The notes under the pieces were generated by a model. It was not told the DNA's origin and searched no databases. It worked only from the letters and a program-made list of their open reading frames with translations. 64,000 nucleotides of DNA from NCBI GenBank assembly GCA_964016885.1, contig OZ024762.1, positions 13,516,001 through 13,580,000 of the forward strand, given 5' to 3'. This DNA is from Eledone cirrhosa. Its lineage: Eukaryota. Position 1 is the first letter of the stretch. Every line of letters begins with the position of its first letter. Of the stretch, positions 2,701-59,412 are shown piece after piece. The translations under genes and the position numbers were made by a program.

Positions 2701-4220
<1,520 letters not shown>

Positions 4221-4226
4221 TATAGA

Positions 4227-4281
4227 TGAGATTCTACAGGACTAGAACTGTTTCATTCTTTAGAAATCATCAGGAATCTCA
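4227..4281 (-). ncRNA. type I hammerhead ribozyme (antisense copy)
   Basis: Reverse complement reads tgagattc-CTGATGA...GAAAcag...ctgTA-gaatctca, with a perfect 8-bp helix I. Confidence 0.82.
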
Positions 4282-4334
4282 GGGATTCCTGATGATTTCT
4301 AAAGAATGAAACAGTTCTAGTCCTGTAGAATCTC
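4282..4334 (+). ncRNA. type I hammerhead ribozyme
   Basis: gggattc-CTGATGA-t ttc taaa gaa t-GAA-Acag ttctagtc ctgT-A/gaatctc; all core nucleotides present, predicted cleavage after GUA (A4327). Confidence 0.8.
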
Positions 4335-4429
4335 ATCTATATTAAAACCTTTATACTCTGCAATGTATTGATTACCTTACTTACTGTGGTTACCTCCAAT
4401 TCAACCCGGAATAACGTATATTATATATA

Positions 4430-4477
<48 letters not shown>

Positions 4478-4601
4478 ATATATATATATATTATATATAT
4501 ATATATAATATATTATATATATATATATATTATGTATATTATATATTACTAATATATATATATATTACTAATATAACACAACTCGTGTGTTACACCTCTA
4601 T

Positions 4602-6734: not shown

Positions 6735-7060
6735 TGCAACCCCATTTTGCTTGGTGAGGAGGGTGATTTTAGACACCTTGCAGGATGAAAATCAAAACCC
6801 TGCAAAGGGCGGATAAACTCGGGAGCGTTAACGACCGTCCGATAAAGTATTTTTTTTACGTGGAGCGAGAGACTCCTAGTCATAATTAAGACATCTCTCT
6901 AGGAGAAGATCTCGCCGATATAAAACCTATGACTTCGTTTCTATCCAATGATGTAGACCAATTCCTTTTGCGTAAATGCATTCGATATTCAGAGCAGGAT
7001 TGGCCTCGTGCAAAACCTTTCCCCACTTTAAAAAAGTCTAAAAAAAGCTTCAGCATTTAA
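6735..7060 (+). mobile_element. RTE-like LINE 5' UTR remnant
   Basis: Homologous to 54145-54455 ('cttggtgaggagggtga', 'ctaggagaag', 'aaaagcttca'). Confidence 0.55.
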
Positions 7061-8118: not shown

Positions 8119-8813
8119 ACACACACACACAGACATCCATACACATACATACATACGTACACACATACACACACACACACACACATATATACAATCACAT
8201 ACACACACACACACAGACATACATACACAGACATACACACATACACACATACACACATACACACGCACACATATATACAATCACATACACACACACAGAC
8301 ATACATACACAGACACATACAAACACAAACAAATATACAATCACATACACACACACACACATATATACAATCACACAGCCACGCACACAAACATGCACAC
8401 ATACAGACATACACACACACACACATATATACAATCACACACACACGCACAGACATACACACACACACACACATACTGGTATCTTAAGTCTTCACTCCAC
8501 ACAGACACACATATATATATATACACACCCACACAATCACACACACACGCACACAGACATACACACATACAGACACACACATATATATTTATATATAGAG
8601 AGACACACAACACAACCACACACACATACATATACAGACACACAAACATAATCTGTTATCTTAGGTCTTCATTCCACACACACGCACAGATGTATATATA
8701 TACACACACACATATATATATATGTATATATATACACACACACATATATATGTATATATATATATATACTGCCATCTTCTGTCTTCACTCCACACACACA
8801 CACATAGGTATAT

Positions 8814-12590: not shown

Positions 12591-12594
<4 letters not shown>

Positions 12595-12757
12595 AACGAG
12601 TAGGACCCCGACGGCAGAGCTCAAGCCGTTTCGACGGCTAAACGGCTTGAGATCAGCCGTCGGGGTCCTACTCGTTCCTATTACCCACTCTACTACCCTA
12701 AGTATTGAGTACTTTGGCGCGTTATGGTCCACCTGGTTCCTTACCACATTTCCTTCG

Positions 12758-12759
<2 letters not shown>
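12591..12759 (+). mobile_element. Penelope-like non-autonomous element, family C (fold-back, 3' half of HHR)
   Basis: Inverted arms 12591-12631/12640-12680; family reads GAAAcggc-ttgagctca-gccgTC/ggggtcc; tail 'gtattgagtac'; flanked by (TA)n. Confidence 0.7.
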
Positions 12760-14089: not shown

Positions 14090-14450
14090 TGCTGAAACTT
14101 GTCTGACTGGTTAAGAACTTCACTTTGTTATCATCAGATGCCGGGTTCGATTCCACTACATGACATATTGATTATTATGTGACTGCCTTTGAGAGAGATA
14201 TGTCGACCTCTCGGGTATATCTGTCGTGGTACGTAAAAAGAGAGTAAGATTTGCTGGCCACTGCCAGCCATCGTGCCACCTCTGAGGCTGTGTCCCCACT
14301 TGTGCTTTGGAAACCACAAGCAGTCAATAATAACATGGGGCGTAAGCTCTCCTATCCCGATGTCATCTCCAGAGAGTCTCGTACTGAAATCCAGGACTTG
14401 GCAACGGTAAGAAACCGCTGGAGCTCAGCCATCGGGGACCAGACTCTTTT
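14090..14450 (+). mobile_element. SINE-like chimera: tRNA head plus RTE 3' end
   Basis: 'tggttaag...gggttcgattcc' A/B boxes; 14217 onward translates ISVVVRKKRVRFAGHC / HRATSEAVSPLVLWKP..RKLSYPDVISRE (frameshifted RTE C-terminus). Confidence 0.65.
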
Positions 14451-14479
14451 CCTTTATATATATATATATATATATATAT

Positions 14480-27138: not shown

Positions 27139-27190
27139 ATTAGCCGTCGAAACGGCTTGAGCTCCGCTGTCGGGGTCCTATTCGTTCCTA
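27139..27190 (+). mobile_element. family C fragment (HHR 3' half)
   Basis: 'attagccgtcgaaacggcttgagctccgctgtcggggtcctattcgttccta' inside (TA)n. Confidence 0.7.
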
Positions 27191-44601: not shown

Positions 44602-44690
44602 CGAAGGAAATGTGGTAAGGAACCAGGTGGAGTCCAGAATTAGCCGTCGAAACGGCTTGAGCTCAGCCGTCGGGGTCTTACTTGTTCCTA
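44600..44690. mobile_element. family C element with inversion
   Basis: Tail on - strand (44600-44631) joined to HHR 3' half on + strand 'agccgtcGAAAcggcttgagctcagccgTCggggtc'. Confidence 0.72.
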
Positions 44691-58829: not shown

Positions 58830-58867
58830 GTATAATATATATATATATATAAAAACAAAGAATGTGG

Positions 58868-58937
58868 GAAAAGAGTCAGGACACCGACGGCTGAGCTCCA
58901 GCCGTTTCGACAACCGTCAGGGTCCTGACTCTTTTCA
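58868..58937. mobile_element. family C variant, fold-back
   Basis: 'gaaaagagtcaggacaccgacggctgagctccagccgtttcgac..ccgtcagggtcctgactcttttc'. Confidence 0.65.
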
Positions 58938-58941
58938 TATA

Positions 58942-58975
<34 letters not shown>

Positions 58976-58981
<6 letters not shown>

Positions 58982-59168
58982 GAAGAGCTTCTACAGGACT
59001 AGAACTGTTTCATTCGTGAGAAATCACCAGGAAGCTCCTGATGATTTCTCACGAATGAAACAGTTCTAGTCCTGTAGAAGCTCTTCTAAATTAAAACTTT
59101 TATACTCTGCTACGTATTGAGTACCTTAATTACTGTGGTTACCTCCGAGTCAACCCGGAATAACTTAT

Positions 59169-59217: not shown

Positions 59218-59226
<9 letters not shown>

Positions 59227-59412
59227 GAAGAGCTTCTACAGGACTAGAACTGTTTCATTCTTGAGAAATCATCAGGAAGCTCCCAATGATTTCTCACGAA
59301 TGAAACAGTTCTAGTCCTCTAGAAGCTCTTCTAAATTAAAACTTTTATAGTCTGCTACGTATTGAGTACCTTAATACTGTGGTTACCTCCGATTCAACCC
59401 GGAATAACTTAT

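Follow-up and report, generated by a model that had tools for sequence, protein, structure and literature searches.

How did a palindrome with a hammerhead ribozyme motif on each strand arise in the DNA of Eledone cirrhosa, and does it move as an element of its own? The palindrome lies near position 4,300 of the window, by which we mean the whole stretch of 64,000 nucleotides that was analysed. An earlier note, made from the letters of this stretch, had proposed a tiny ribozyme-bearing, non-autonomous mobile family. Our analysis indicates that the fold-backs are likely to be real and abundant debris of a Penelope-like element (PLE) and not a new mobile family.

Structure of the fold-back and its hammerhead motifs

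Alignment of the arms showed that residues 4220-4278 and 4284-4342 form perfect 59-bp complementary arms with a 5-nt loop between them. A tail of 74 nt follows at 4343-4416 and (TA)n flanks the fold-back on both sides, where the outer bases of the short arm blend into the TA run. The palindrome, the tail and the (TA)n setting are therefore present as the earlier note had described them. The RNA fold of 4225-4345 has a predicted energy of -95 kcal/mol (z = -20), which was equalled by 0 of 200 shuffles. The unit contains neither a TATA-like box nor ORF sequence, and the filler between its arms (Table 1) would consist of a cap copy together with terminal additions. Tandem-repeat masking covers 37,664 of the 64,000 bases of the window, which also includes 200 N.

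Table 1. Location of the fold-back, its parts and its neighbours in the window
Feature	Position	Strand	Description or evidence
Short arm	4221..4279	-	Element RNA +1 to about +60: stem I 5' strand, hammerhead, stem I 3' strand, up to the first 3'-end site
Junction filler	4280..4283		Untemplated: one G at left-arm start, two G at right-arm start; plus one linking base
Type I hammerhead, long arm	4284..4333	+	Motif scan, fold, stem I covariation between subfamilies
Element 5' UTR: spacer and PLE 'tail' between the two 3'-end sites	4334..4416	+	128/133 identity of 4284-4416 to L120
(TA)n-rich target, left	3600..4220		Sequence
(TA)n-rich target, right	4417..4560		Sequence
Second fold-back, related subfamily, 86% identity, other junction	58978..59167	+	Motif scan and comparison
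Third fold-back, related subfamily, 85% identity, other junction	59223..59411	+	Motif scan and comparison

A motif scan located one type I hammerhead motif on each strand, with cores at 4289(+) and 4273(-) and the cleavage A at 4327(+) and 4235(-). On the plus strand, stem I is formed by residues 4284-4288 with 4328-4333 and is followed by CUGAUGA (4289-4295), helix II (4296-4307) with a U.U closure, GAAA (4308-4311) and helix III (4311-4314 with 4323-4326), and the cut is predicted after A4327. The CUGANGA core, GAAA, UH and helices I-III of a type I hammerhead are all present. Published Hydra-clade ribozymes share this layout, the U.U closure included (File S2 of PMC8557442, in the part compared). 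Among relatives in metagenome contigs, this closure was observed in 12 of 23, and 24 of 77 of their metagenome loci carry the hammerhead motif. Three pairs of stem I are altered on both sides among 25 related rows, which were selected with helix III fixed so that the invariance of that helix is uninformative. Helix III is predicted to be more stable as a dimer (-12.8 kcal/mol) than as a hairpin (-1.4 kcal/mol), which agrees with the PLE-type, dimer-capable hammerhead that had been suggested. The monomer hammerhead fold (-4.3 kcal/mol) is not the predicted minimum (-7.7 kcal/mol). Recognition by a hammerhead model was not borne out: an Rfam search of the fold-back returned no hammerhead match, neither at gathering score nor at E<=10, and the top sub-threshold match was mir-3199.

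The antisense arm is transcribed first on either strand and the predicted read-through hairpin is strong (about -106 to -109 kcal/mol), so ribozyme cleavage is unlikely in read-through RNA. In the folding model, such RNA from either side would form the 59-bp hairpin before the ribozyme folds, in line with the trapping by the antisense arm that the earlier note had envisaged. Core bases were not seen to be better conserved across copies than other bases: they differ from the master at 4 of 348 positions and other bases at 16 of 1,450, that is, equally often in these small numbers. The core of the fold-back copies thus appears to carry no sign of selection.

The parent Penelope-like element

An ORF of the parent beside the ribozyme of the window was not found in the 30 best Pfam GIY-YIG loci nor in 20 long-ORF loci; it was reached by walking outward from single-arm ribozyme matches. 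The locus found in this way (L120; C1:14204500-14214499, minus strand) carries, in order, a ribozyme, the tail, an ORF that encodes 713 aa counted from its ATG, a 3' UTR of 3.7 kb, a TATA-like box and a second ribozyme. Window residues 4284-4416 are identical to the 5' end of L120 at 128 of 133 bases, and the tail runs on into the ORF in L120 and in L171-L200. Both the link to PLEs and the autonomous partner with RT and GIY-YIG that shares the tail, as predicted in the earlier note, were therefore located. Intact ORFs of 711-713 aa were observed in 6 of the 13 long loci examined. When 411 bases of the ORF start were used as the query, 422 candidates were obtained, of which 40 were scored and matched at 99-100%.

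The 713-aa ORF contains the motifs RWR, DKT, CNCLNKEAC, CDLC and CMH. Marks of the Hydra clade (Craig et al. 2021, PMC8557442, section 11) are RWK, DKT, a CxCx5C linker, and CxxC and CxH around conserved E and N, and the ORF carries this motif set with an RWK-like first member. The parent also resembles that clade, as far as it was compared with this source, in its single ORF with a telomerase-like RT followed by a C-terminal GIY-YIG, its type I ribozyme with a U.U-closed helix II in the pseudo-LTR, its tail, its (TA)n targets and its tandem and inverted 5'-truncated copies. The model of the 713-aa protein (pLDDT 88) has telomerase RT (TERT) as its best fold match, and the protein aligns to an RVT_1 plus GIY-YIG protein with a profile-match probability of 92%. 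Pfam gave only a weak GIY-YIG match (E 0.012) and no RVT_1, and a sequence search against solved structures returned 0 matches. A total of 1,404 homologues were found. Judged from its sequence, the parent is an intact RT and GIY-YIG element of the Hydra clade of PLEs. It is a new family of this clade, where the consensus sequences of PMC8557442 were compared by word search alone and may include a relative; none of the Hydra rows of File S2 in the part compared matches the window ribozyme.

The family differs from the Hydra clade as described in the compared part of PMC8557442 in having a longer helix III loop and about half of its exact ribozyme matches in short fold-backs. The parent unit is also larger, about 5-6 kb whereas the described families are mostly <3 kb, as a result of the 1.7-3 kb of (TA)/(TG) repeat in its 3' UTR. 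This mixed repeat measures 1.7-3.0 kb, with landmark words common to 6 of the 7 copies (L120:1330-4300, L232-L238), and the seventh measured 3' UTR span is 6.2 kb long and less repetitive. Given the landmark words and the repeat, the element is likely to seed a compound microsatellite across the genome.

Among L179, L182, L192, L200, L233 and L236-L238, several full-length copies were seen to start at the short-end site and one starts beside the ribozyme cleavage site. Such starts give permuted copies of about unit length, which could reflect either a circular template or integration of the element at its own site. The full-length copy of L120 lies inside a short TA run of another repeat (L120:700-760, 6790-6830, 8130-8200). 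We noticed a similar empty site 1.4 kb from this copy, the filled site having the longer TA run.

Abundance, outer ends and junctions of the fold-backs

In the genome of 3.0 Gb, 27,663 sites match a 27-nt word of the arm exactly, against 0 for the control. The first 100 matches comprise 53 short fold-backs, 20 matches with the upstream region of the element, 4 longer inversions, 8 inside another repeat and 15 others. The 8 (L061, L065-L067, L073, L081, L202 and L220) lie in one other, longer repeat with identical flanks and are an old ribozyme fragment that rides as a passenger. Over all subfamilies, 4,212 junctions per strand were found within 17 nt of the core, with a few loci counted twice, and the genome holds about 4,200 fold-backs of the window type whose junctions are varied.

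The outer ends of the fold-backs are fixed at two places. Short arms stop at +15 or +21-23 past the cleavage site and tail arms at +88-92, and the tail is present on one arm in 39 of 45 sampled fold-backs. A TA run is found next to both ends in 36 of 45 sampled fold-backs, next to one end in 8 and next to neither in 1, as expected from the (TA)n targeting that had been proposed. An assembly artefact is disfavoured, as DNA contigs of other runs, one of which may be the assembly's own source, also show the joints as well as loose ends at the ribozyme.

Fifty unselected junctions of the window's subfamily fall into 27 types. The exact junction of the window was observed in 29 copies, of which 18 have the tail on the right, 10 have it on the left and 1 has no tail. 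These copies represent at least three loop-II types, with both arms of each copy alike. Since the exact junction is found in several subfamily backgrounds and with the tail on either side, it recurs independently. Loop II is the same in both arms of 35 of 40 unselected copies, against 17% expected by random pairing, and in the remaining 5 the two loops are one base apart. Judged from the matched arms and the recurring junctions together, every palindrome is likely to have formed afresh on RNA of a single kind.

Non-LTR retrozymes (PMC7229834; 10.64898/2026.07.22.740005), so far as these sources were compared, are likewise short, non-coding and derived from PLEs with a type I ribozyme. They differ in being direct tandem repeats that give circular RNA, whereas the window unit is inverted, mostly single and without a sign of replication. 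Direct tandem repeats with a ribozyme in each were not observed in the window, where the two adjacent copies (Table 1) differ in their junctions. A tandem array with 12 ribozyme-bearing units about 1.08 kb apart was seen elsewhere (G000:C1:83679809-83691700) and is a possible retrozyme-like or satellite derivative.

The junction hot spot and the origin of the fold-backs

The junctions cluster at the initial bases of stem I of the ribozyme, 30 nt past the TATA-like box of the parent. We observed 1,159 junctions with both arms intact to GATT in the window's subfamily, 16 just upstream (both arms past -14, joined within 17 nt) and 295 in helix II over all subfamilies; the counting patterns and the breadth of subfamilies differ between these intervals and the ratios are therefore rough. 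An excess of junctions at the cleavage site was sought and was absent, with 25 matches, including 1 in which both arms meet the site exactly. The starts of single insertions on (TA)n coincide with those of the fold-back arms (769 matches, overlaps included), and in two subfamilies the start lies 30 nt after TATAAATA. A TATA-like box was found at -46 to -34 from the core in 11 of 21 relatives, against 0-2 of 20-22 relatives in each of five other intervals, where the interval was picked after looking, the relatives are not independent and the count excludes L329 (weak, minus strand) and L336 (near duplicate). In the parts of the sources compared, TATA and Inr are noted for the rotifer PLE pLTR (PMC3846280) and the D. 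virilis Penelope promoter is TATA-less (PMC2377424).

Upstream of the start, promoter-bearing copies read CCC and then AGATTC. Before AGATT, where the element's own base is C, an extra G was observed in 25 of 36 fold-back arms and in 19 of 44 single insertions. Before GATT, where that base is A, an extra G was observed in 14 of 100 arms and in 9 of 24 singles. The templated C precedes AGATT in 14 of the 44 singles and 7 of the 36 fold-back arms, so the start may spread over -1 to +2. In L1, an extra 5' G is a sign of cap copying (PMC11702581, in the part compared). Part of the extra G before AGATT can come from folding of the cDNA on stem I, and two junction fillers continue with self-templated sequence of the stem I type; such self-templating cannot explain the G before GATT. 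Inverted 5'-truncated copies, tails and (TA)n targeting have already been described for PLEs (PMC8557442, in the part compared), whereas a stem I junction hot spot with an extra G was not found described in the literature covered, which included PLE papers and left most subscription journals and Repbase entries outside.

The unit is probably a head-to-head pair of 5'-end fragments of the Hydra-clade PLE, which arose from one abortive insertion on capped, uncleaved RNA when two cDNAs were joined. The RNA of the element would start at the A of stem I, 30 nt past the TATA-like box, and would be capped. The protein would cut a (TA)n site and both target ends would prime reverse transcription within the 5' UTR, one at each tail end. 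With linear, uncleaved RNA as the template, the two cDNAs, of about 60-68 and 135 nt, would extend through the ribozyme and run off the cap, picking up a C opposite the cap plus other untemplated bases, after which the two cDNA 3' ends would be joined by end-joining. The product would have neither promoter nor ORF and would be dead on arrival. Inr, strong-stop and end-joining serve here as general labels. As head-to-head fragments that would be formed afresh each time, the fold-backs are likely insertion debris and not a mobile element of their own.

An in vitro precedent comes from an element of the Poseidon clade and not of the Hydra clade. The protein of the Poseidon PLE of Anolis (Frangieh et al. 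2024, PMC11167929) cleaves and extends both strands at an AT-rich target, uses an uncleaved RNA template and has two internal RT start sites which equal the tail ends. By analogy, the fixed outer ends of the fold-back arms would fit these two sites. A 5' run-off product, a stem I start and head-to-head joining are not among the features described in the part of that paper compared. L1 twin-priming inversions (PMC11702581, in part) are similar in that the second target end primes a second cDNA and that full-length 5' ends carry a cap G, but the L1 arms are adjacent, mostly non-overlapping parts of the RNA whereas both arms of a fold-back are copies of one and the same 60-nt stretch. Opposite-strand ribozyme pairs and inverted pLTRs of PLEs (PMC4209133; PMC3846280, in the parts compared) also have head-to-head ends and close ribozymes and were read as truncated PLEs. 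Those pairs are 100-700 bp apart or few in number and were explained by self-priming on antisense RNA, whereas thousands in the window family abut at one position with an extra G.

Self-priming of this kind, where one cDNA or an antisense template snaps back at the RNA 5' end and copies itself, was our initial idea and is now considered unlikely. It would account for the matched arms (35 of 40), for the lack of pairs in which one arm stops at the ribozyme and the other passes it, and for those fillers that appear self-templated, and it has already been proposed for head-to-head junctions of rotifer PLEs (PMC3846280, in the part compared). It also predicts that the tail arm always reaches furthest 5', and this test failed, as the same asymmetric junction has its tail on either side (18 against 10). 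Among 23 scored longer inversions, the tail arm is the longer in 12 and the shorter in 11 (for example, 33 against 275 and 41 against 456 nt), with 6 of 29 pairs unscored and lengths through microsatellite being rough. By eye, the reach of the tail arm is about even in short fold-backs as well, and the window copy has extra G on both arms.

It is very unlikely that the hot spot instead reflects a splice acceptor, or a pause or processing site at the ribozyme edge, in an RNA that is longer or circular. The sequence upstream of stem I is T-rich and ends in CAG, an intron of D. virilis Penelope ends at the 5' end of helix I (PMC4209133, in the part compared) and many arms pass the hot spot, all of which would suit this reading. 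However, splicing would add one constant upstream exon, whereas the sequence preceding the start becomes variable beyond one or two letters, and the 30-nt TATA spacing is retained in two subfamilies. A pause is also disfavoured since RT would unwind stem I before it reaches the 5' strand of that stem. It is hardly credible that, in some lineages or more widely, the protein of the parent copies the fold-back as a unit. The 29 copies of the window's exact junction and the best 40 matches to the unit, which are 96-100% identical over it, are what such copying would leave. Against it are the spread of those 29 copies, whose two arms match, over three or more loop-II types and over both orientations of the tail, the 27 types among 50 unselected junctions, the lack of a TATA-like box or ORF sequence in the unit and a core without sign of selection (small numbers). 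Copies that descend from one another with a fixed structure, as in a non-autonomous family, were not observed. Unit copying is already largely refuted for the window's junction, and a self-propagating 195-bp family is not supported.

Run-off of two cDNAs from a capped RNA is not the sole outcome, since 4,818 arms of the window's subfamily read through the start. Of 16 head-to-head pairs, 9 have two arms that stop at the ribozyme or within it, 7 have two arms that pass and none is mixed. For 20 further passing arms, a passing partner was found within about 1.5 kb in 1 case and a stopping partner in 0. The like-with-like pairing (16 of 16) suggests two template forms, one capped and linear, the other circular or tandem. 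The template would decide the outcome, where a capped linear RNA halts both RTs and a continuous template lets both pass. We tentatively extend this to a possible scheme in which capped, uncleaved RNA from stem I gives strong-stop-like cDNAs seen as thousands of fold-backs, and new working copies come solely from a continuous template, be it a circle cut by the ribozyme and ligated or a tandem read-through, so that two template forms of one PLE RNA might be recorded in the genome. A ribozyme-made circular template has been proposed before (PMC4209133, in the part compared). If the two-template reading is true, the ribozyme would determine whether an insertion is productive, and its placement right where the transcript begins would be a design shared across the clade.

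The origin of inverted PLE ends and pseudo-LTRs and the role of the ribozyme are stated as open in the compared parts of PMC8557442, PMC11167929 and PMC3846280. With thousands of young insertion records plus intact ORFs, this family is a large natural record of PLE reverse transcription. These records speak for priming from both target ends on RNA that is capped and uncleaved, and they yield exact predictions of the start site, the two RT start sites and the product lengths. They are also a warning for annotation, as PLE debris of the fold-back type resembles a MITE or a microRNA hairpin.

In addition, a second TA-inserted family with the same head-to-head, one-tail fold-backs was noticed in the window at 12593-12758, about 14410-14452, 27146-27179, 44646-44677 and 58866-58940. 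The canonical CUGANGA was not seen in its copies, which have GAAA and GUC as well as a long helix III whose loop is the palindrome GAGCTC. Its tail has a word in common with the first family, and 64 matches to its arm were found among the loci examined, some of which overlap.
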